DNA of 61,418 nt, filler included, from Candidatus Babelota bacterium (GCA_017999075.1; 10 parts of 10 records of this genome joined end to end with filler, not necessarily neighbours in it); one strand, 5' to 3'. Shown: positions 6,450-61,133, counted from the whole stretch's first letter. Numbers and translations: made by a program. The notes: generated by a model from the letters alone, not told the origin.

Positions 6450-8561
6450 TTATATAAAACGCGATTTTCTAATTTCAGCAATAATATCTTTTATCTGCTG
6501 AAACTCAAATGGCTTCTGAATAAACGAATACGCTCCGGTCTGTTTTATATTTTCTATCTCAAGTCCTATCTGCCCTGAAATAAAAACTATAGGAATTGAT
6601 TTTATTTTTTTGATTTCTCTGAATATTTCTTCTCCTTTCATATCTGGAAGCAGCATATCAAGAAATATCAGATCAAAATCATTTTTCAAAACTAATTTTA
6701 CAGCCTGTTTGCCTCTTTCACAAACAATAGTATCACAATTATTTATTTGCAATATTTTCTTCATTGACCTTAAAAATTCAGGTTCATCATCAACAATCAA
6801 AACTTTCAAAGGAATTTCATCATTTATTATCTGTTCATTGTTATTTTTTTCATTATCAAAACTATGCTGAATATTCGAATATCCCGCAGGTAAAACTATT
6901 ACAAACTTAGTTCCTTCTCCTTCTGTGCTTTCAGCATAAATTCTACCGGAATGATTTTCTATTATCATAAAAGTAACTGAAAGCCCTAATCCTGTACCTT
7001 TAATATTCAAATTATCTTTAGCAAATGCTCCTTTTGTAGTAAAAAACGGGGTAAATATTTTTAATTTGGTTTCGTCATCCATTCCAATTCCTGTATCGCT
7101 TATTGAAATATAAACCTCTTCTTCTTTTAAATAAGTCTTAATTGTTATTAATCCTTTTCCTTTAGGCAAAATAGCATGACGCGCATTTATTATTAAATTC
7201 AGGAAAACCTGTTCAATCTGTCCTGGATCAACATATATTTTTTCAGAATTCGAATAATCAGTCAAAACAGTTATATTTTCAAGTTCCAACTGTTGTTTCT
7301 GAAGTTTTATAACCGAATCTATTATATCTTCAATTTTAATTAATTCTTTTTTAGGAGGAACAGGTTTAGCAAAACTCATCATATACTCAACAATTTTTTT
7401 CCCACGTAAAATTGCGTTTTCAATTGCTTTCAGCGATCCTTTCGAATCATCCGACAACTTATTATTATCCTCCATAACAATAAGTTTAGCGCTTGTGTAA
7501 GCAATTGCCAAAATATTATTAAATTCATGAGCAATACCTGCAGCAAGCTGACCTATAGCGGATAATTTTTCCGAATGTATCAATTGTTCCTGAAGTTTTA
7601 TTCTTTCATTTTCCAGCCTTTTCAATTCTGTTATATCCGTTGATATTCCGCATAATCCGTAAACTTCTCCTGATTCATTTTTAAGAGGAATTTTTATTAC
7701 CCAATAAGTGCGGGGGGTGTTTTCAGGAGAAGACAAATTGGTTTCTTCTCTAATAATTTTATCTCCGCATTCAATTACAGGTTTATCACTTTTCAATATT
7801 TCTTCAACCGAACTTTTATCAAAAAAATCATCGTCTTTTTTCCCTACAATATCACAAAGCGTTTTACCGAAAAGCTCACATACTTTTTTATTGGCATACG
7901 TATAGCGATAATTTCTATCTTTAACAAAAATATAAGATTCAACATTATTTAGAACATCGTTAAGAAAATCCTGATTTTCTTTCAATTTTTTTTCCGAAAA
8001 ATTTCTTTTTTCCTGATCTGATAAAAGCAATCCGAGAAAAACAGTGCCTAAAGGATAAAGAATCATTACAGGCAATGAAATATTTTTCAATACGCTAAAT
8101 GCAATTTCTTTAGGCAGAGTCAGCATCCAAAGCAGCATAAAAATATGAGTAATTATCCCTAAAAAATAAAAATGATAATACTTAAGTTCAGATACATTTT
8201 TTTTTAAATTTCTAAATATTATTCCTGTTGCCGCTGAAGTAAAAATAACGCATATTCCAGTAAATACTCCGCTTCCGCCTATATGCCATCTATAAATTGA
8301 AGTCATTATTGCAGCTATTCCGGCAGGAATTATTCCACCAAATAATCCAGCCATACTTAATACAATAGAACGTCCGTCAAAAATAACTCCTTTGCTGAAA
8401 TTAATCGGAGTTATCATTCCTATAACAGCAATACTGCCGAATATTATCCCTGATAAAATTCTACTTGTATTTCCAGTCTTTTTGCCTTTATTAATAATAA
8501 AACCATAAAGAATGCTTAATGCCAATAGCAATGCTATATTTCTGACATATTCTAAAAACAT
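6450..8561 (-). CDS. Hybrid sensor histidine kinase (5TM-5TMR_LYT-like membrane domain, PAS, HisKA, HATPase, receiver)
   Basis: GVIFDGR in a multi-TM N-terminus, PAS/PAC (FVKD...GISTDITE), H-box AHEFNN, N-box NLIINA, GTGLGL, receiver LIVDDE/FLDM/KPF. Confidence 0.93.
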   Translation of the reverse strand: MFLEYVRNIALLLALSILYGFIINKGKKTGNTSRILSGIIFGSIAVIGMITPINFSKGVIFDGRSIVLSMAGLFGGIIPAGIAAIMTSIYRWHIGGSGVFTGICVIFTSAATGIIFRNLKKNVSELKYYHFYFLGIITHIFMLLWMLTLPKEIAFSVLKNISLPVMILYPLGTVFLGLLLSDQEKRNFSEKKLKENQDFLNDVLNNVESYIFVKDRNYRYTYANKKVCELFGKTLCDIVGKKDDDFFDKSSVEEILKSDKPVIECGDKIIREETNLSSPENTPRTYWVIKIPLKNESGEVYGLCGISTDITELKRLENERIKLQEQLIHSEKLSAIGQLAAGIAHEFNNILAIAYTSAKLIVMEDNNKLSDDSKGSLKAIENAILRGKKIVEYMMSFAKPVPPKKELIKIEDIIDSVIKLQKQQLELENITVLTDYSNSEKIYVDPGQIEQVFLNLIINARHAILPKGKGLITIKTYLKEEEVYISISDTGIGMDDETKLKIFTPFFTTKGAFAKDNLNIKGTGLGLSVTFMIIENHSGRIYAESTEGEGTKFVIVLPAGYSNIQHSFDNEKNNNEQIINDEIPLKVLIVDDEPEFLRSMKKILQINNCDTIVCERGKQAVKLVLKNDFDLIFLDMLLPDMKGEEIFREIKKIKSIPIVFISGQIGLEIENIKQTGAYSFIQKPFEFQQIKDIIAEIRKSRFI

Positions 8562-21421: not shown

Positions 21422-22120
21422 AATTATACTGTTAATGGAAATGATGCCTATGATACCGTCATAACCTATAATAAAAAAGGAATACGAAAGATTGAATGTA
21501 TAAAGAATGAGGACATATTGTATCATTGTTTATATTACGATAATACCAATAAAATAGTAAGTGAAATAATAAACGGAAATGGAAAATCAATTGAATATTA
21601 CGATAATACCAATAAAATAGTAAGTGAAATAATAAACGGAAATGGAAAATCAATTGAATATTATGATAATGGAAATACTGATTGCATTAGAGAATATCAA
21701 GAAGGCAAACTAAATGGAAAGGAAATAAATTATTTTGAAAATGGTAAGATTGAAAATGAAATTAATTATCTAAATGATTTAAAAAATGGTCAAGCTATTT
21801 TATGTCTTGAAACGGGAGAAAAAATTGAAGAGAAAAATTATCTCTTGGGTCTAATGGAAGGTCAACAAAAGGAATGGTATGAAAACGGTAATTTAAAGGA
21901 AATAACAGATTATACAAAAGATAAGAAAAATGGTAAACGAATCAAATGGCGTAAAAATGGTATTAAAAGTGTCGAAGAAAATTATTTTAACGATAAATTA
22001 CACGGAGAATGTTATTATTGGTGGCAAAATGGAGAAAAAGCAGCTGAAGTTAATTATGAAAATGGTATTGAAAAAGGTAAAAGAAAAGAATGGGAGAGCG
22101 ACGGTAGAAAGATAAAATAA
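21422..22120 (+). CDS. Cassette 1: MORN-variant/YwqK-type repeat protein, 5'-truncated
   Basis: Repeats of Y..G...G....WYENG; frame open from contig start (NYTVNGNDAYDT...). Confidence 0.85.
   Translation, partial: NYTVNGNDAYDTVITYNKKGIRKIECIKNEDILYHCLYYDNTNKIVSEIINGNGKSIEYYDNTNKIVSEIINGNGKSIEYYDNGNTDCIREYQEGKLNGKEINYFENGKIENEINYLNDLKNGQAILCLETGEKIEEKNYLLGLMEGQQKEWYENGNLKEITDYTKDKKNGKRIKWRKNGIKSVEENYFNDKLHGECYYWWQNGEKAAEVNYENGIEKGKRKEWESDGRKIK
21533..21658 (+). repeat. Exact 63-bp tandem duplication (21 aa x2) inside cassette 1
   Basis: TATTACGATAATACC...AAATCAATTGAA at 21533 and 21596, encoding YYDNTNKIVSEIINGNGKSIE twice. Confidence 0.95.
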
Positions 22121-22136
22121 TTAGTAAGGCACTAAC

Positions 22137-22234
22137 GCCTAACTCGGGCTTATACCTCGAGCCTGCGGCTCGGCGCTTTGCGTCATCCGCCGCAGGAAGC
22201 GGCGGCGGACGAGTATAAGCCCAATCCGTTAGGC
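22137..22234 (+). other. attC site 1 (98 bp)
   Basis: GCCTAAC ... GTTAGGC; GGGCTTATAC(C)TCG pairs with CGAGTATAAGCCC; internal GC hairpins. Confidence 0.9.
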
Positions 22235-22276
22235 GTAATGCCCTTAAAAAATATTTTATTATTGGAGTGTCAATGT

Positions 22277-23074
22277 ATGAAGAATTTTATTTTATTTATT
22301 AGTTTTCTAATTATTGTAATTAGCGAAGCTCAATCAAAAGAAATTCGAGAAGAAATTATCTCACGATATGAAAGTGGGCAAAAAAAAGTTTACTGTAAAT
22401 TTGAAGGTTTATTGAAAGAAGAAAAAATAGTTGAGCGAATTGAATTTTCAGAAAATGGTAATATTTTGACGCATTATTTAACGGCAACTGTTGGCGACGA
22501 TAGATTTGATACTGAAATAATATTTCGAAAAAAATCAATAGAAACGATTAAATGCTTGAAAAATAATAAGCTATATAATTGTAAATTTTATAACTCGCAA
22601 AATAAATTGGAAAGTGAAATAATTGAAGGAACTGGAAAATTAATTGAATGGCAAAATAATGGTAAAATTAATTTTTCTGCGGATTATGTTAATGGTTCAT
22701 TAAATGGAAAATATACGATATATCATGAAAATGGATTGAAAAAATATGAAGCTGATAATGTCAATGGCAAAACACACGGAAAATGTATATATTGGTCAAA
22801 AAAAGGGAGCAAAATCAAAGAGGAAAATTATGTTAATGGATTTGAAGAAGGCAAAACAATAGAATGGGATGAAGAAGGCAAACTTATTGAAACAGAAGAT
22901 TTTGTTTTAGGAAAAAGAAATGGAAAAAAAATCAGATATAATGAAAAAGGTTTAAAAATTGAGGAAACAGAATATGTTAATAATCTTAAACATGGAAAAA
23001 GCATAAAAATTGATAGAGAAGGTAATGAAACAATAACATATTTTGAAAATGGAGAAGAAGTAACTAAAAAATGA
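22277..23074 (+). CDS. Cassette 2: secreted MORN-variant/YwqK-type repeat protein
   Basis: True start is probably ATG 22277 (GGAG RBS at 22264, signal peptide MKNFILFISFLIIVISEAQS); the longer ORF call starts inside attC 1. Confidence 0.85.
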   Translation: MKNFILFISFLIIVISEAQSKEIREEIISRYESGQKKVYCKFEGLLKEEKIVERIEFSENGNILTHYLTATVGDDRFDTEIIFRKKSIETIKCLKNNKLYNCKFYNSQNKLESEIIEGTGKLIEWQNNGKINFSADYVNGSLNGKYTIYHENGLKKYEADNVNGKTHGKCIYWSKKGSKIKEENYVNGFEEGKTIEWDEEGKLIETEDFVLGKRNGKKIRYNEKGLKIEETEYVNNLKHGKSIKIDREGNETITYFENGEEVTKK

Positions 23075-23085
23075 CGGGCACTAAC

Positions 23086-23172
23086 GCCTAACTTGTGCTT
23101 TTACCTCACGCCTTCGGCGTGGCCGCTTTGCGGTCAGCGCTGCGCGCCGAGTAAAAGCACGGTTCGTTATCT
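23086..23172 (+). other. attC site 2 (87 bp)
   Basis: GCCTAAC ... GTTATCT; GTGCTTTTAC(C)TC pairs with GAGTAAAAGCAC. Confidence 0.9.
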
Positions 23173-23190: not shown

Positions 23191-23601
23191 ATGAAGAAAT
23201 TAACAAAAATTATATTTTATATTTTAGCATTAATACTTCTAATTATTTGCTTAGGGTATTTTATTTTACCAAAATTTTTAGTTCCAGACAGAGTAGAGCC
23301 AATCGGCGTTTTAAAAAGTGATATTTCTTGTTTATCATCTGCTTTACAATTATATTTTGTTGACCACGAAAAATATATTGTTGCTAAAGGTAAAATAAAA
23401 AATACTTTAAAAGAATTGGAACCAAAATATATTTCAAAATTACCCAATCTAAATTATTATGGTGAATGGATTAAAAAATATAATTATTCAGAATATTATT
23501 ATGAAGGAGATACTGATAATTTTATAATTTATATTGAAAATCCAATAGAAAAACTAAAATTTATCGGAGAAGAAAATAAGTTTGAAATTATAAAAAAATA
23601 G
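23191..23601 (+). CDS. Cassette 3: membrane-anchored pilin/GspG-like small protein
   Basis: N-terminal TM helix, then LKSDISCLSSALQLYFVDHEKY and LEPKYISKLP, resembling the GspG/pilin helix; no prepilin cleavage motif. Confidence 0.6.
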   Translation: MKKLTKIIFYILALILLIICLGYFILPKFLVPDRVEPIGVLKSDISCLSSALQLYFVDHEKYIVAKGKIKNTLKELEPKYISKLPNLNYYGEWIKKYNYSEYYYEGDTDNFIIYIENPIEKLKFIGEENKFEIIKK

Positions 23602-23609
23602 CCGGCATC

Positions 23610-23702
23610 AGATAACTTGTAGCTATCCCTGACGGACTGCGTCCGTCGCCCTGCGGGTCATCCCGCTTTCAGCGGGACGAGGATAGCTACTATCCGTTAG
23701 CT
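23610..23702 (+). other. attC site 3 (93 bp)
   Basis: AGATAAC ... GTTAGCT; GTAGCTATCC(C)T pairs with AGGATAGCTAC. Confidence 0.9.
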
Positions 23703-23737
23703 GACATGTCCCTTGAGACATAAGCAAAGGAAATATT

Positions 23738-25666
23738 ATGGAAAAACGTCTAAATCAAACGAAAGAAGAATTAATTGAGGAAATAAAGCGATTAGAAATA
23801 TTTAAAAAGATTATTGTGTCAACAACTGAAGCTATTGCAATTAGTGATGAAAACGGAAAATTATTATTTATAAATCCTGCGCACGAAAAATTATTTGGGC
23901 GTTCGTTAGAAGAAGCAAAAAAATGTAATTATCGAGATTATTATCCAGAGAAATCAATAAAAATTCTCAATGAAGAAGTCGTTCCTATTTTAAAAAAAGG
24001 AGGTAGCTGGGAGGGTATTCTTGAAGTTAATGATGTAAAAGGCAGATGTTTTCCTTTATGGGAAAAAGCTGATTCTATACTTGATGATAATCAAAAAATG
24101 TTATATGGATTTGGCATTATGCATGATGTATCACGAGAAAAAGAATTAGAAAATCAATTAAAAAAAAATAAATTTTGGCTAAAGAAAGCTCAAGAAGTTG
24201 CTCGAATCGGACATTGGGTTTGGGAAATGAAAACACAAAAATTACATTGGTCTGATGAAGTATATAGAATTTTTGGAGTTGAGCCGAATTCATTTGCGCC
24301 ATCTGTTGAAGCATTTGAGTCAAAAATTCATCCTGATGATTTAGCTGATTTTTTATTTAAAAGAGAACAAATGCTTAATGAAAAAAAAGATACATTTATT
24401 GAACATCGTATTATTTTACCGACTGGGGAAATTAGATATGTTATTGAACGTTCAGAATTATTATTAGATGAAAAAGGTAATGTTGAAAGCGTTCTCGGAA
24501 CAGTTCAAGATATAACTGATTATAAAACTCTTCAAAATCAATTAATTCAATCAGAAAAACTGTCAGCCGTCGGTCAACTTGCCGCAGGAATAGCGCACGA
24601 ATTCAATAATATTCTTGCGATAAATCATTCCAATATTCAACTATTGGAATTGACAGAGAAAAATAATATTTCGGAAGAATCATTAGAATTATTAGAGAGT
24701 ATAAAGAGCGCTATAAAACGAGGAGCGGCTATTGTATCAAATATGATAGCATTTGCTAAACCGCTTTCACCGAAAAAAGAATTAATTAAAATTGAAGATA
24801 TTATTGAAAATGTTTTAAAAATGCAAAAGCAGCAAATAGCATTAGAAAACATTGAAATAGATAGGAGATATGAACAAACCGAAAAAGTATACATCGATAA
24901 TGGACAGTTTCAACAAGTATTCTTAAATTTGATTATAAATGCAAGACACGCAATATTGCCTAATGGCAAGGGAAAAATTACATTATCAGTAAAAACTAAA
25001 AATAATAAAGTTGAGATAAAAGTTATTGATGACGGAATTGGAATTGATAATGAAAATTTGAAAAATATTTTTATTCCGTTTTATTCGACTAAAGGCGCTC
25101 ACGCTCGAAATAATCACGGAATAAAAGGGACGGGATTAGGATTGGCTGTAACGCATACCATAATAAAAAATCATAATGGAACAATACGAGTTGAAAGCGA
25201 AAAAGACAAAGGGGCAACATTCATAATTGATATACCAACAGCAGAAAATAAAACTGAAACATTAAAAAAAGATACAAAAGAAATTATAAATGAAGTCGAA
25301 CAAAAATTGCTAAATGTTCTGATTATTGACGATGAGCAAGTTCTACTTTCAACGATGACACAATTATTCAGAATAAATAATTGCGAAGTAAAAAGTTCTA
25401 TTTCAGGATTTGAAGGAATTAAACTTGCGAAAGATAATAAATTTGATATTATATTTCTTGATATGTTATTGCCCGATATATCAGGTGAAAATATTTTCAT
25501 AGAAGTTCGCAAGTTTGATACTGATGTTCCCATAGTTTTTATATCAGGGCAAATCGGAATTGAAATTGAAAAAATAAAAAGTTTAGGAGCATACGATTTT
25601 ATACAGAAACCATTCGATATGGTAGCAGTAAAAAAAATACTAAATGAAATTAGGAAAAAAAAATGA
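23738..25666 (+). CDS. Cassette 4: cytoplasmic hybrid histidine kinase (PAS-PAS-HisKA-HATPase-receiver)
   Basis: Two PAS/PAC domains (IGHWVWE..WSDEVYRIFG..IHPDD), AHEFNN, NLIINA, GTGLGL, IIDDE/FLDM/KPF. Confidence 0.93.
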   Translation: MEKRLNQTKEELIEEIKRLEIFKKIIVSTTEAIAISDENGKLLFINPAHEKLFGRSLEEAKKCNYRDYYPEKSIKILNEEVVPILKKGGSWEGILEVNDVKGRCFPLWEKADSILDDNQKMLYGFGIMHDVSREKELENQLKKNKFWLKKAQEVARIGHWVWEMKTQKLHWSDEVYRIFGVEPNSFAPSVEAFESKIHPDDLADFLFKREQMLNEKKDTFIEHRIILPTGEIRYVIERSELLLDEKGNVESVLGTVQDITDYKTLQNQLIQSEKLSAVGQLAAGIAHEFNNILAINHSNIQLLELTEKNNISEESLELLESIKSAIKRGAAIVSNMIAFAKPLSPKKELIKIEDIIENVLKMQKQQIALENIEIDRRYEQTEKVYIDNGQFQQVFLNLIINARHAILPNGKGKITLSVKTKNNKVEIKVIDDGIGIDNENLKNIFIPFYSTKGAHARNNHGIKGTGLGLAVTHTIIKNHNGTIRVESEKDKGATFIIDIPTAENKTETLKKDTKEIINEVEQKLLNVLIIDDEQVLLSTMTQLFRINNCEVKSSISGFEGIKLAKDNKFDIIFLDMLLPDISGENIFIEVRKFDTDVPIVFISGQIGIEIEKIKSLGAYDFIQKPFDMVAVKKILNEIRKKK

Positions 25667-25678
25667 CGGGACACAGTC

Positions 25679-25720
25679 AGCTAACTTGGGCTTATACCTC
25701 GAGCCTGCGGCTCGGCGCTT
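25679..25720 (+). other. attC site 4, left half only
   Basis: AGCTAAC followed by GGGCTTATACCTCGAGCCTGCGGCTCGGCGCTT, identical to attC 1; no matching right arm before the contig end. Confidence 0.8.
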
Positions 25721-25814
25721 CGCTCCGACAGGCAAGTAAAAAAATATTGATAAAACAGCGACGTAATTCATTGATAATATTAGACTTACATCGCTATTTC
25801 TGCCTCATTTGAGT

Positions 25815-27170: not shown

Positions 27171-29228
27171 ATGAATGAAATTCAGTTTACGGCGGAATTA
27201 GATTATATTTTTATAGAGAAAATTACCGCGTTTATAGTAAAAAATATTAAGAACAGCAGTCAGGTAAGCGATATAAGCGAACTTGTAAACGGGTTATACT
27301 ATTTTACAGATAATATACTGTATGATATTATTGACGATAAAACTCAAGTAACCGGAACCTGTAAGATAGATAATACTACAGTTGTAATTGATTTGGCTAA
27401 CATCCCGCCTGAATATTTAAAGACCAAAAAAGATCATTTTTTGGAACTTAAAAAACACATTGGTAAAATCGGGTATGATGAACCCACCAAAATTTTGAAA
27501 TTGTCAAAATATCTGTTTGTGGTTGATAACGAATTTGAAAATCAATTGTCAAATATAGTATCTGATATAAAAACTTCTGAAACAAAATCCAGCGACAGCA
27601 TAGATGATTCATTTGCCGGATTAAATCCTGTAGAAGCAGAGAAAATCATCACCCAACTGAAAAATATAGATAAACTTAATTTTTATTGTTTTGACAGATT
27701 TTTATATGATATAAGTTCTGCAGAATTATTGTCGAATTTATATTATTTCAGGCGAGTGATTCCGGGTCAAATAGTAGCTGCTACGCTGCTTCCTATTTTA
27801 AAAAGCAAGCAGTTTAAAAGTTTGGAGTCCGGTGAAAATATTTTAATTTCAAAAAGCCGAAACTGTTATTTTTCTAAAATTAATGGAAGAGTCAGGTGGG
27901 TTGGAGATAAAGTAGAAGTTTCTGCAGTACAGAGTATAGATAAACCGATAAATAATTATCAAAAAGAAATAGTCTGTGAAAATTCATTGATAGTAAACGG
28001 AACGGTTTCAGACAGTGTAAGTATCAATACTGCAAAAGATCTGTATGTTATAGGAAATGTTGTGAATACGGGAATTACTGTAAAAGGAGATTTATATGTT
28101 TCCGGAAAAATAGAAAATTGCAATACCAAACCATTTATCGTAACAGGAAATATTATTGCTTCGGGAATATTAAATTCGAAATTGACTTCGGAATCGAATA
28201 TACTTATTTCTGAAGAAATAATATCGAGTTATGTTTCTGCAACCGGAGATATCATTCTTGACGGAAACAAACAGGCTATAGTCGGCGGCCTTATAGAATC
28301 AGGGAAAAGTGTAGTTTGCGGAGTTATAGGAGATGGTAAAACGCAGACAGAAATTTCATTAAAATCAGTTTCAAAAGAGAATATCGAAAAATCAAAGCTG
28401 CTTGTTTCAAAAAATGAAGTTGAGAAAGAATTAAAAAAAATAAATCAGTCTTTCAAAGAACTTACAGAAAAAAGAGATTCTGGAGATACCACAAAAGAAC
28501 TTGATCTTAAGATAAAAAACTGCATACAATTAAGAATTAAAATGGAAAAAAATATAGATTTTCTCACCACAAAAATTACTGAATTTGATGAATTGAAATC
28601 TTCTGATACCGGAATGCTGAGGGTTTCCGTAAAAAACAATATTTTTTCTAAAGTAATAATGAAATTCAACGGATTGTCAAAAGAATTTTCTGAAGATCAA
28701 AATTCTTCATCTATAGTTTATACAAAATCAGGAATCACGGTTTCAAGATATAATTCTGGAAAAATAACCGGTGAAACTTCTGTTGATTTTAATGTATCTG
28801 CTTCCGGACGAGAACAGATAGATCCGGCTTCTATAAGAAAAAGCATAGTTATGGAAGGAAGCAGTGAAAATAAGTCAAAAGATCTTGCTGCAAAATTTTT
28901 AGAAATTTCTTCTGAGAAAATAGCTTCAGAAAAGATATTCGAATCAAAAACAAAATGCAGGGTATTTGCTGCTCAATTGAAAGATGGAGAAGACAAAATT
29001 GAGGTTATTTCTAAACTTCTTCCAGTAAAAAGGAATATATCGTTAAATACCGCTGAAGGTGTAAAACGAGTTAAGATTTCAGGCGACACACTTGAAGATT
29101 GTATAAAATCTGCTATCCAGAAATATAAAATTGAAAAAACAAAATTAAAATATATTGTTATTAAAAAAGGTAAAAGCGGGGTTTTCGGACTTGGAAAAGA
29201 ACAATACATTATAGAAATCGAAATATGA
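27171..29228 (+). CDS. FapA/DUF342-like protein with C-terminal Jag_N-like domain(s)
   Basis: Central V/I-x-G-x-V beta-solenoid with IVGG, coiled coil, and C-terminal ISGDTLEDCIKSA...KGKSGVFGLGK. Confidence 0.75.
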   Translation: MNEIQFTAELDYIFIEKITAFIVKNIKNSSQVSDISELVNGLYYFTDNILYDIIDDKTQVTGTCKIDNTTVVIDLANIPPEYLKTKKDHFLELKKHIGKIGYDEPTKILKLSKYLFVVDNEFENQLSNIVSDIKTSETKSSDSIDDSFAGLNPVEAEKIITQLKNIDKLNFYCFDRFLYDISSAELLSNLYYFRRVIPGQIVAATLLPILKSKQFKSLESGENILISKSRNCYFSKINGRVRWVGDKVEVSAVQSIDKPINNYQKEIVCENSLIVNGTVSDSVSINTAKDLYVIGNVVNTGITVKGDLYVSGKIENCNTKPFIVTGNIIASGILNSKLTSESNILISEEIISSYVSATGDIILDGNKQAIVGGLIESGKSVVCGVIGDGKTQTEISLKSVSKENIEKSKLLVSKNEVEKELKKINQSFKELTEKRDSGDTTKELDLKIKNCIQLRIKMEKNIDFLTTKITEFDELKSSDTGMLRVSVKNNIFSKVIMKFNGLSKEFSEDQNSSSIVYTKSGITVSRYNSGKITGETSVDFNVSASGREQIDPASIRKSIVMEGSSENKSKDLAAKFLEISSEKIASEKIFESKTKCRVFAAQLKDGEDKIEVISKLLPVKRNISLNTAEGVKRVKISGDTLEDCIKSAIQKYKIEKTKLKYIVIKKGKSGVFGLGKEQYIIEIEI

Positions 29229-57106: not shown

Positions 57107-60100
57107 GAAGATCATGATTGAATAAATAAGTATTTTTTTCTTTATTATTTCCAATAAAATGAAGAAAATTATTGTCGCAGAATTTTTTCATTGCAGAGAA
57201 TAAATTTATTTTCAGTCTCATTTTTTTTGATATATACTCAATGACTTCAAACTTGAATTCTCTTCCTGCGATGGCTGCAAATGACAAGATTAATTTTTCA
57301 TTTTCAAAAAATTTGTCGAATTGGCTTATAATAACAGAATTTACCGAATCAGGAATTTTAGAATTTTCTAAAACGTTTTGAGAAGAATTAATAATCTGTG
57401 AAATGAAAAACGGGTTGCCTGAAGTTTTTTGATAAATTTCAAAAGCGTATTTGTTTGAAATATTAGAATTGATATTCAAATTTTTAATATATTGTTTCAT
57501 TTCGGAAAAAGTAAATGGTTTTATATCGATTTTAGTATATATCCGATTGTCGCAATCATTGATGAAAATATTTTCAGGCCGTTGAGTCATAATAAAATAT
57601 AGTTTTTTTATATTTTTTTGATTTTTGTTATGTTTTATTAATTCCTGAAGAAGTTCAAGAGAAATTTCATCAATCCAGTGAATATCTTCTAATATTATAA
57701 GAACCCTGTCTTCTGCCAATATAAAAAATAATTCTATTATTGACTGAAAAAATTCTGATTTATTGTTTTTGCTGTCATGATTGGAATATTCATCAGAGTT
57801 ATCTTGAATTTTTATATCGAGCAGGTTTGCTATGAGCGGAATGCATTTTAATAAGTATTGTTTTTGAATCGCCAATAATGATTTTTTTAAATCATGACCG
57901 ATTTTTTCTGTTATTAATTTTTTTAGTAACTGCTTCCACATATAGAATGGAACTGAGGAAAGATGAAGCGAATATCCTGCTGAAAAAATTTTAAATCCGT
58001 TATTGATAAATATTTTTTGTATATGACGGACAAAAGAAGATTTCCCTGTTCCAGCCTGTCCGATTATGTGAATAAAATACGGGAAAAAATTTTCGTTATA
58101 TAATATTTTTTCTACAATTTCTGTTTCATTTTTTCTGCCTAAAAATATAGTATAGTCTTTTCTTAAAATATTTTGAGAATCTTTTTTTCCTATTAATTCA
58201 AAAAAATCATATTTTTCTTTTATTCCTTTCAAGTAAGCATATTTTTTTTTAAACTTAAAAAGTTCTGAATGTTTTTCAGCAATGTCAGAACCGCAGTATA
58301 TTTTATCTTTCGGAGCAATAGACATAAGTCTTGCTGCAATATTGACTACATTTCCCATGACAGTATATTCTTTTCTGTTCAAGGAACCTATCAGTCCTAT
58401 GAAAGCATTACCATAATTTATTCCTGTTTGTTGAGATATTCGGCATTTGCAAATATTTTTTTTACATTTGGTTCTGATTTCTGAATTTATTTTTTTTATA
58501 GCATCTCTCATTTCAATAGCGAACCTCAATGTGTTTTCGGTAAAGTTATCGTAACACACTGGCGCCCCGAAAATTATTAAAAATTTTTCTCCGGAATGAG
58601 ATATATCGCTGCGCAGAAATTCTCCTTTGTAAGCTGTTGTAATATCAATTAATTTTTCAAAATAGCGTTTAACAGATGATTTTAAATTATCGCAAAAATG
58701 TTTTTCATTCAAACTTATCATGTCTGAAAAACCAGAGATATTTATGAATACAACTGCAATATTTCTGTTTACGGAAAGCAGATCGTATTTATAATTTAAA
58801 TTTATTATGCTTGATAAAACAGCTGAAGGAATAAACTGAAATAATTTAAAACATAATTCACGGCATTTATTTCTGTCAATCTCAAAATCAGAAATGCGTT
58901 CCATGCTGTTTTTAAATTCTTGAGGATAAACATAATTAGAATTATTGTTTATGTAAAAAAAGTCTTTTGATCCTTTTACCTGAATTAAATTAAATTGAGG
59001 AGGTAATTCTATAGCAGATTTGCGTGAAATTACGATTTCTCCTGATTCTGCCATTTTTTCCGCTTCAGCAAGTTTAGATAAAGTTTTTCCGCAAATATAA
59101 TATTCTTTTCTGATATTTTTATAATTCAATACAGTAGATATTACTTCTCCGCTGCTTATACCTATATGAATATTAAAAACATATTTTTTTTTAAATATTT
59201 CAATAGGCTGTTTGTTTTTTAAAAAGTCAATAATCTTCAATGCCGTAAATGCAGCATTTATTTTTGCCATTGATTTGTTAGTTATATTTTCAGGATACAT
59301 AGCCATTAAAGAATCTCCGCCGAATTTTAATATAGAACCGCCATATTCATTTATAATGCTGATAAAATTAGTGAAAATAGAATTTATCGTGGTTGTAAGA
59401 ATTTCAGCAGCTTGATCTCCGGAGTTTTGTAATTCATTTAATAATTTCGTGAATCCGCTAATATCTGAAAACAAAAATGTGTAATGAACTTTTCTGAAAT
59501 CGAATTTATAATTATTCGGTTTTTTCAGTAAAATAATCAGCAGATAACTTGGAATAAATATTTGTAAAATCCCAAACAATTTTTTATAGTCATCGTTAGT
59601 TTTCAAGTTGCTGAAAATTTCAGGTAAAAATTCATGGCGTTCATTATGGCTGCTTAAAAGAGATATTCTGGTTTCAGATTGAGTTGAAAATGAACTGTGA
59701 TATGACGGCATATCTGATTCTAAAAAGTTTTTAAAATACGGAATAGATTCATTTGTTTTTTCAGTGTTATAAAGACAATCTCCGATCAAAAACAGAACGT
59801 CTCTATTTAATCTTTCATTACTTTTTAAATAAGATAGAGCCGTTTCATATTCGCCGTACCACCATAGTTTCACTCCTTTAAAAAAGTTACAAGATGACTC
59901 TGAAATATTTATTTTTTGATTAATCGGAATACCAAGTTTGTTTAATGTAAGTTTTTCAATATCTGCTATAAGTTCTCCATATACACGGCGTAAAGGGATA
60001 ATATTTTTGAGTGAATCGTCGAGTTCAATAAAATACCTGTGTTCCGGAAGATATGCTTTGGTCAATCCGCATAAACCCTGAATAGTTTTTAAAGAAATGG

Positions 60101-61133
60101 AATAATATTCGCAATAATTTTTAAATGTCAGATTTTGATAATATACTTCTTCTATGCTGCCGTAATTTTTATAAATTTTTATCATTTCGGCAATTTTAGG
60201 TTCTGAAACTTTTATTGTCCTGCATACTGATTCAATAGCCATTTCAGGGGATATGTAAAACGGTTCGGCAATTGTAACAGGATGTGATTCTCCTTTTTTT
60301 TCTTTTTTTGATTTAATACCGGCAATATATTCCGGCAATTCTTTATGAAGTGAAATTTTATCTAATATTTCTGAGCATACAGAGTAATAAGTTTCAGGAA
60401 AATTCATTTTGTTCATCTCAAAATTATTTTTATAATAAAAACAATTTGAACTGTATGAAAAATTAGATGCGTATTTATCCGCTGTTTTAATATATATGTC
60501 GTGAATGAAAGATGATTCGAAATCAGGGTAATGGCAATCATTTGTAAGAACAGGATTGCAATTATATTTTTTGCACATTCCGGAAATAAAAGAATTTACT
60601 TTTGACTGCATTGCGATGTCGTGGCCTGAAACTTCAGGATAAAAATCTTTACCGAATTCTGAATAAAATTTTTTGAAAATAAGTTCGGCTTGTTCAATGT
60701 TTCCTGATGATAAAGAAATCCCTATTGGTCCTCCTATGCATCCTGATAAAACGATAAGTCCTGCTTTCCGTTCAATTAATTTATTTAATTTTACTACAGC
60801 ATATTTTGGCGGAAGAAAATTATCTGTCCATGCATCTGAAACGATCCGGACAAGATTAAAAAAACCTTCCAGATTTTTTGCTAAAACAACAAGATGGGAA
60901 ATCTTATTGTTTTTATTATCTTCAAAAGAAAAATATAATTCACATCCCAGAACAGGAATTATATTGTTCTCAATGCAGGAAAAGTAAAAAGGCCAAACAG
61001 CGGCCAAAGTCCCGTGATCAGTTATCCCCAATGCTTTATGATTATTTTCTTTTGCAAGTTTTACTGCACTTTCAATGCGTAAAACACTGTCGGAAAAAGA
61101 ACCGAAAAAATGATTATGCAAATGAAAATACAT
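57107..61133 (-). CDS. Multidomain fusion: DnaE-type PHP + DnaE remnant + TPR + two class III cyclase domains + STAND/AAA NTPase; 3'-truncated
   Basis: HLHNH/TDHG/GCE/SHL/SGC/NDCHY; FSDISGFT and KFGGD; EYTVMGNVVNIAARL; FLGRKNE, GQAGTGKS, LEDIHWID, GNPFF, FNHDL. Confidence 0.9.

Follow-up and report, generated by a model that had tools for sequence, protein, structure and literature searches.

The question raised by this locus is how a hybrid histidine kinase of about 2 kb came to be carried as a gene cassette, and whether it was taken from the kinases of its own host. The window, the whole 61,418-nucleotide stretch of DNA that we analyzed, consists of ten contigs of the Candidatus Babelota bacterium genome GCA_017999075.1 (here G000) with N spacers between them; the kinase cassette lies on contig C503 (21422-25814) and the kinase used for comparison lies on C499. 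C503 is a separate contig of 4.4 kb, and the two kinases are therefore on different contigs. The G000 genome comprises 3.83 Mb in 594 contigs, with 30% GC, 87% completeness and 2.6% contamination in the bin, and no 16S rRNA gene was found in it. Our genome set for the phylum contained four genomes (G000-G003; 86-97% complete), three of which, G000-G002, represent the bacterial family of the host, G001 being congeneric with G000 and G002 belonging to another genus. Sequence of C503 was found in wastewater, digester and landfill metagenomes from three studies, the best-matching run of which may be the sample of origin, and the run search listed no RNA dataset containing it. The features of the two contigs that bear on the question are as follows.

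6450..8561, - strand: chromosomal 5TM-PAS hybrid kinase of the same subfamily, outside the array, on C499 (5TM-5TMR_LYT, PAS, same core)
21422..22120, + strand: MORN_2-repeat cassette ORF, open at the contig start
22137..22234, + strand: attC-type site 1 (R'' GCCTAAC, R' GTTAGGC), folding z -6.3
22277..23074, + strand: cassette ORF for a MORN-repeat-like exported protein, 35% to the ORF at 21518, weak LIC20035 match, variants at 88-92% in runs X1, X2 and X5
23086..23172, + strand: attC-type site 2 (R'' GCCTAAC, R' GTTATCT), folding z -3.7, 96% over 81 nt to a site on G000:C272
23191..23601, + strand: cassette ORF of 136 aa with a hydrophobic stretch at the N-terminus, no match in family searches, cassette ends matching over 9 nt
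23610..23702, + strand: attC-type site 3 (R'' AGATAAC, R' GTTAGCT), immediately 5' of the kinase cassette, folding z -5.9, 77 bits with model R1 (a training-set site)
23696..25723, + strand: kinase gene cassette, from the G/TT crossover core to the interruption point in its own attC, with 10-nt complementary ends
23738-25666, + strand: soluble hybrid histidine kinase of 642 aa (PAS, PAS_3, HisKA, HATPase_c and Response_reg domains)
25679..25723, + strand: left half of the kinase cassette's attC (R'' AGCTAAC, L'' arm, first inner hairpin), 95% over 43 nt to attC 1, without a full hairpin
25724..25814, + strand: end of a repeated element inserted mid-attC, where C503 terminates; identical 90 nt at G000:C100

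Two other proteins of the window drew our attention: a large ORF at 57107-61133 combines a PHP domain, two adenylate/guanylate cyclase domains and an AAA/NB-ARC-like ATPase, and at 27171-29228, immediately 3' of recA, lies a FapA beta-solenoid protein with a Jag_N domain at its C-terminus.

The four ORFs of C503 share one orientation and are separated by GC-rich sites (22137-22234, 23086-23172 and 23610-23702), the bottom strands of which fold at the z scores given above, with 0 of 200 shuffles equally good in each case. An earlier note on this DNA had placed a kinase cassette at 23696..25685, and those limits hold, with GTTAGCT at 23696-23702 and AGCTAAC at 25679-25685. The ATG of the kinase lies 42 nt past the G of the crossover core and is preceded by a Shine-Dalgarno-like AAGGA (23727-23731), R'' starts 13 nt past the stop codon, and a consensus scan of the + strand from 23500 to 24240 found no promoter-like site. 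The two ends of the cassette show 10 nt of complementarity, whereas none of the 13 G000 paralogs exceeds 5 nt; since its 5' end after the G is complementary to the end of R'', a circular form would re-form a site. When a cassette is taken to be an ORF between attC-type hairpin sites with R''/R' cores, the kinase has a whole site upstream and half of its own site downstream, and this half folds at chance level (z -0.45, with 60 of 200 shuffles as good). The earlier assignment as a cassette is thus borne out by the three folded upstream sites and the 10-nt ends, and falls short at its own attC, of which half is present. The kinase gene on C503 is an integron-type cassette. In the reads, the same attC sequences occurred beside other neighbours at unequal depths, and no joint was seen that skipped or circularised the kinase cassette, low-complexity joints having been set aside as noise. 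Depth in run X1 was 13-18 for the kinase contigs and 5.5 for the cassette before them, which hints weakly that the kinase cassette also has another array context. The MORN-repeat-like cassettes at 21422-23074 form a neighbouring pair, the second of which has its 88-92% variants, and higher depth, in three runs.

The array to which this cassette belongs is one of a family. A covariance model (R1), built from 14 G000 attC-type sites and applied to at most 150 candidates per genome, identified 17 sites in G000, 20 in G001, 8 in G002 and 0 in G003; the attC family is therefore present in all three genomes of the host family, where the contigs that carry it include some of 31, 52 and 112 kb. Among 46 sites the R' core was GATA in 18 and GTTA in 21, with seven lacking an R' call, and the three whole sites of the window all have GTT. 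GTT and GAT cores are mixed within single sites, and the inner hairpins are branched. Cassette ends, scored for 23 cassettes of G000-G002, matched over exactly 10 nt in 14 and over at least 9 nt in 17, some of the low values being due to mis-anchoring by the search pattern. Cassettes ranged from 0.5 to 6.2 kb with a median of 1.1 kb, and the kinase cassette, at about 2.1 kb, tied for third of the 23. The suggestion that it is unusually long therefore holds against published surveys, such as one in which the median cassette gene measures 402 nt (from part of the text of PMC7370490), and does not hold within the host lineage. Long cassettes are said, in a passage of 10.1101/2024.07.02.601686, to recombine poorly.

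No integrase above the TIGR02249 cut-off was found in any of the four genomes (G000-G003; 86-97% complete), and a canonical IntI in G000 was rejected on that ground. The recombinase on G000:C9 scored 180.6 of 265 bits against this model and has 14 aa across a stretch that is 55 aa in IntI4, which indicates a SAM4 recombinase without the IntI-specific insertion, the feature by which IntI is defined in a passage of 10.1101/2022.02.06.479319. Its gene is intact, with a GTTATCA core behind it near the contig end. A SAM4 tyrosine recombinase also lies 5' of the first cassette, co-oriented with the array, at G002:C50 (frameshifted) and at G000:C124 (a remnant); at both places the first cassette begins 190-250 nt past this gene or what remains of it, and has no upstream hairpin. 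G001 has 20 attC matches, yet at E<=1e-40 nothing in it matched the C9 enzyme. Two canonical-integron features are thus absent, an IntI with the insertion and an invariant GTT crossover core. As judged from its sequence, the kinase element behaves as an integron cassette in the cassette features tested, within a system that lacks those two features of canonical integrons.

The cassettes of the three hosts are alike in composition, with a GC3 of 0.15-0.16 in each cassette set and 0.21-0.30 in the chromosomes (G001 and G002 sampled in part), and cassette proteins common to different genera are 81-95% identical. Cassettes of G000-G002 have one common codon usage, which is unlike that of each host chromosome, and the cassette codon score also ranks contigs C434, C341, C122 and C156 of G000 as further cassette candidates. 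Their cargo is varied. A five-gene dynamin-like operon forms a single 6.2-kb cassette with matched ends (L257:4375-10476, G002:C50; G000:C414, C21), its proteins being 81-95% identical in two genera. A flagellin with a propeller insert occupies a 2.8-kb cassette (L201:4120-5763, G000:C272), has cassette-like codons and 11 matches in the host proteome, and may be a second cassette derived from a host gene family. In G001, metabolic cargo between attC sites includes an ammonium transporter (L258:4784-5989); a prismane-family (Hcp-like) protein with two small genes spans about 3 kb between attC sites (L266:164-2922), and three paralogous exported-protein cassettes, with a zinc ribbon at the end, have an identical 10-nt start (L260:691-2103, L263:87-1358, L263:1490-2839).

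The attC of the kinase cassette is interrupted at about position 25724, and the next 90 nt are identical to those behind another half-site at G000:C100, while a third attC half precedes the same element sequence in run X2 (record 16). One element end thus splits three different attC sites at an identical point of the inner hairpin (window 25724-25814; the end of G000:C100, L207:2867-2991; X2 record 16). The element end carries a motif that is also found beside tRNA genes (C124, C589), and this tRNA association suggests that the element is the end of a tyrosine-recombinase island. No match to the inserted element was found in G001-G003, and no Rfam family was found at the attC-type sites. The 21 viral matches to a 15-mer of the element looked chance-like in the 10 flanks inspected among them. 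Because the element splits its attC, this copy of the kinase is probably immobile at present, held in place for now by an attC-targeting element. A second attC-targeting element is an IS110-like transposase, found in two genera beside an attC that breaks off immediately ahead of R', the junction sequences being similar (L202:362-2309, G000:C25; L269:254-2279, G002:C102). A broken reverse-transcriptase gene lies 3' of a cassette on an array contig (L203:444-1484, G000:C85) and is probably a group II intron remnant.

The kinase itself has its two PAS domains at residues ~22-131 and 169-256, followed by HisKA at 278-341 (His287), HATPase_c at 388-501 and a receiver at 527-634 (Asp575, Lys624), and has no membrane sensor domain. 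Read from alignments, its catalytic motifs are intact, namely the HisKA histidine, the N, G and F boxes of HATPase_c, and the Asp, Ser/Thr and Lys of the receiver. The second PAS domain shares 55-59% identity with those of subfamily members, among them the attC-free kinase of G001:C114 (P0019). The first has matches of only 28% in G000, with no close paralog there, and is 60-63% identical to domains of two unrelated multi-PAS proteins, from which we infer that the gene is partly of non-host-family origin; to judge by these alignments, the cassette kinase is a mosaic protein. It has the PAS-HisKA-HATPase(-receiver) layout in common with CckA-, EspA/EspC- and AtoS-like PAS kinases, for which the best NCBIfam scores were 174-219 bits. 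Orthology to CckA, EspA or AtoS was rejected because all scores fell far under the curated cut-offs of 646-1400 bits.

As the earlier note had stated, the kinase aligns without gaps to the one at 6450-8561, from the H-box through the end of the ATPase domain (213 of 412 residues, 52% identity); the two sensors differ, PAS-PAS in one and 5TM-PAS in the other by domain search, and no attC was found near the 6450-8561 copy. The four strings reported as idiosyncratic are indeed in both proteins, most of them being motifs of a 14-member subfamily, and KELIKIEDI alone is limited to the pair. The members of this G000 subfamily (n=14) are 41-65% identical to the cassette core, and the next match outside it is at 31%. 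Its closest G000 paralog is the kinase on C489, with 65% core identity, compared with 53% for 6450-8561. At E<=1e-50, with 48 candidates scored in each genome, G001 had four subfamily members, G002 five and G003 three, while 2 of 37 other sampled genomes had members, at 32-40%. Among homologs of known source, the closest were not in unrelated taxa: the best 80 of 141 loci in the genome scan were all at 34% or less, and in a large protein set, members labelled Spirochaetes were at 46-48% and those labelled Lentisphaeria at 39%. The best homologs in that protein set were at 77% (P0002), 75% (P0003), 65% and 63%, with their source not on record. The best 80 of 470 loci in a metagenome scan were at 41% or less, P0002-P0006 not being among the matches listed, and a viral scan found no homologs of the cassette kinase. 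When attC sites were marked on the subfamily, the cassette kinase was the only member in G000-G003 with one nearby. At C489 and C499 we found no attC scar or end match, and the matching neighbours in G001 have no kinase. The attC-free chromosomal paralogs also have shuffled sensors, a mark of lineage-specific expansion, so that an integron is not required for the shuffling.

In order to place the cassette kinase among its relatives, trees were built with FastTree on 90 rows and with IQ-TREE on 40 rows and on 33 rows of known context; genome-locus duplicates, the short P0015 and matches under rank 75 were left out, as were most unplaced proteins in the smaller trees. In the 40-row tree the cassette kinase forms a six-row clade with P0002, P0003, P0006, P0004 and C489 (100/98), which sits within a 10-row clade together with four G002 kinases (97/94), and the C499 kinase (6450-8561) pairs with C381 (100/96). 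Grouping of the cassette kinase with C499 was rejected on the 33 rows (p-AU 0.0001). With groups chosen after inspection of the tree, its placement outside the subfamily was likewise rejected (p-AU 0.0001), as was placement outside a 12-row group (p-AU 0.018), while a position as sister to the G002-plus-C489 group, the tightest test of nesting, was not (p-AU 0.08). The claim of close paralogy to 6450-8561 therefore survives as membership in one subfamily, without the special pairing; 6450-8561 was rejected as the source of the cassette kinase, and the suggestion that it is a domesticated cassette did not hold, its partner being C381, away from the cassette. In the rooted tree the cassette kinase falls inside a group of attC-free chromosomal kinases from the host's bacterial family, in agreement with the earlier proposal of a cassette built from a host gene family. 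This nesting, together with the lack of attC at the other members in G000-G003, makes movement from chromosome to cassette the parsimonious direction for the family as a whole. The tree thus favours chromosome-to-cassette recruitment at the level of the family, and the direction at the tips would depend on the context of P0002-P0006.

The cores of the cassette and C489 kinases are 72% identical in DNA, with a pS of 0.61 and a pN of 0.20, so that synonymous sites appear to be near saturation and the recruitment event old. Codon usage is distinct as well: the kinase has 21 CAA and 3 CAG codons, the C499 kinase 3 and 16. With a codon score modeled from the G001 and G002 cassettes only, the kinase scored +0.031 (bootstrap 0.010-0.051), which places it at the 99.2nd percentile among 1620 ORFs, and all 13 G000 paralogs had negative, host-like scores, so that the codon comparison proposed in the earlier note came out as cassette-like for the kinase. 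Other foreign-looking genes with no attC on record share a high score, which therefore marks mobile DNA generally, and the signature does not separate a cassette from a mis-binned contig. A recent duplication from the chromosome of G000 itself was rejected on the pS of 0.61 and the codon usage. Run X1 contains a 99% variant of the kinase, in which 7 of 10 listed differences are synonymous (10 of 17 listed), and the landfill run X6, from another study, has kinase pieces at 96% and 93%.

On balance, we think it probable that the kinase is a long-standing integron-type cassette recruited from a subfamily that has expanded on the chromosomes of this lineage. As the tree suggests, an ancestor in the host family would have had orphan hybrid kinases whose sensors were freely exchanged around a conserved HisKA-HATPase-receiver core. 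One soluble PAS-PAS member would then have been packaged, promoterless, between attC-type ends and, to judge from codon usage and the variants, kept in a cross-genus cassette pool under purifying selection. A co-oriented SAM4 tyrosine recombinase without the IntI insertion would move the cassettes, crossing over behind the G in GTT or GAT cores. Once transcribed from a promoter of the array, the kinase would sense a cytoplasmic cue through its PAS pair and be autophosphorylated at His287; from the anatomy of the protein, its action is most likely phosphotransfer from His287 to Asp575, with the signal passing to partners that the host already has. Since the lineage's own kinases have this core, the cassette kinase probably feeds the existing two-component network of the host and would need no partner gene of its own.

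The alternatives differ from this account mainly in where the kinase came from and in what it feeds. The cassette could have come from another organism with the same kinase subfamily, or C503 could be mis-binned, and the likeness would then be distant kinship. C503 is indeed a separate 4.4-kb contig with non-host codon usage, the best homologs (77% and 75%) have no source on record, and the bin has 2.6% contamination; against this, the attC family occurs in all three family genomes, long contigs included, in tetranucleotide distance C503 is unremarkable, at the 74th percentile among 163 similarly sized contigs, and named outside taxa reach at most 34% (best 80 of 141 genome loci), or 46-48% in the protein set, compared with 56-65% for attC-free kinases of G000 and G002. 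We therefore regard an outside source as improbable. The earlier note had further proposed shuffle-able sensor inputs to one native phosphorelay; in the strong form of this idea, cassettes are interchangeable sensors that all feed a single dedicated relay, to which the 6450-8561 kinase belongs as well. The first DHp helix (A[AS]G[IV]AHEFNN) is near-invariant across the 14 G000 paralogs, which makes common partners or cross-dimers plausible, and the cassette has no partner gene. However, the arrays examined contain a single type of kinase cassette, attC-free paralogs shuffle sensors too, and the first receiver helix differs among the cassette, C489 and C499 kinases. No stand-alone Hpt was found in G000 (87% complete), where all 17 Hpt matches fall within reading frames at least 372 aa long, and a reading of neighbours found no evident co-oriented response regulator downstream of any of the 13 paralogs. 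Among comparable paralogs, part of Alm et al. 2006 (PMC1630713) describes diverged expression and little evidence of crosstalk. The single shared phosphorelay was accordingly not borne out, and we consider it very improbable.

Recruitment from the chromosome may also have been accompanied by the reverse. The six-member clade (the cassette, P0002, P0003, P0004, P0006 and C489) would then be mainly cassette-borne, its PAS inputs swapped around a fixed core, and C489 would be a settled cassette that lost its attC. Consistent with this, C489 is nested (99/96) above the short-branched pair of the cassette and P0002, the cores of the clade are 58-77% identical while the sensors are mostly 21-35% identical or unalignable, and C489 has the top cassette score among the 13 paralogs. 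The congeneric G001 has no close match to C489 (best 48%), its gene matching the upstream neighbour of C489 has no adjacent kinase, and insertion at secondary sites has been described in a passage of PMC1382264. However, C489 has no attC or end-match scar and its codons are host-like (-0.022), P0004 lies on a 28.7-kb contig, longer than the array contigs seen here, the array contigs of G001 and G002 that were examined contain no second kinase cassette, and sensors are shuffled among chromosomal paralogs as well. Such two-way traffic seems to us rather unlikely. It is tempting to speculate, though we hold the idea doubtful, that two-component expansion in this lineage is driven by an integron-like system with a patch-less recombinase. 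Kinases with fixed native cores and swapped PAS domains would travel between genera as cassettes, join the host network with no partner gene and sometimes become fixed on the chromosome, as at C489. If this were true, chromosome and cassettes would exchange genes both ways, and the six-member clade would offer a dated series on the making and domestication of cassettes.

Most cassette genes have no host relatives, so that their source is untraceable. Passages of PMC4889954 describe the creation of cassettes as unknown. The host arrays have in common with the sedentary chromosomal integrons and CALINs described there tandem co-oriented ORFs, each followed by a folded R''/R' site, an ATG near the crossover, and mobile elements in sites; they differ in their mixture of GAT and GTT cores, their 10-nt end matches and their branched inner hairpins, and the candidate integrase differs from those of integrons in lacking the IntI-specific insertion and in being co-oriented with the array. 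Cassette ORFs of Vibrio that are 70-76% identical to attC-free genes of related bacteria were reported by Boucher et al. 2006 (PMC1382264), where the direction is left unclear and the cargo consists of enzymes or TA parts. Here the cassette encodes a signalling protein of several domains, and the large attC-free expansion in which it nests makes the direction readable, unlike in the Vibrio case. That expansion resembles the orphan-kinase expansions of Desulfovibrio, as described in part of Alm et al. 2006 (PMC1630713), in its conserved kinase core, shuffled PAS or membrane sensors and lack of an adjacent response regulator, and differs in that one member is a mobile cassette, integrons not being mentioned in the passages on Desulfovibrio. 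A histidine kinase carried as a cassette did not turn up in the main texts examined from the integron-cassette literature, the survey supplements of which may list such genes.

Given the age of the split, the packaging step itself is no longer visible; the host is uncultured, and the phenomenon as such has been on record for Vibrio since 2006. The present case contributes a large signalling cargo whose direction can be read. A regulatory protein of 2 kb can persist as a cassette under selection, even though surveys find short ones. The rooted tree links a cassette to the kinase family of the host's own lineage, and thereby provides a traceable, if old, case of a host gene becoming a cassette.
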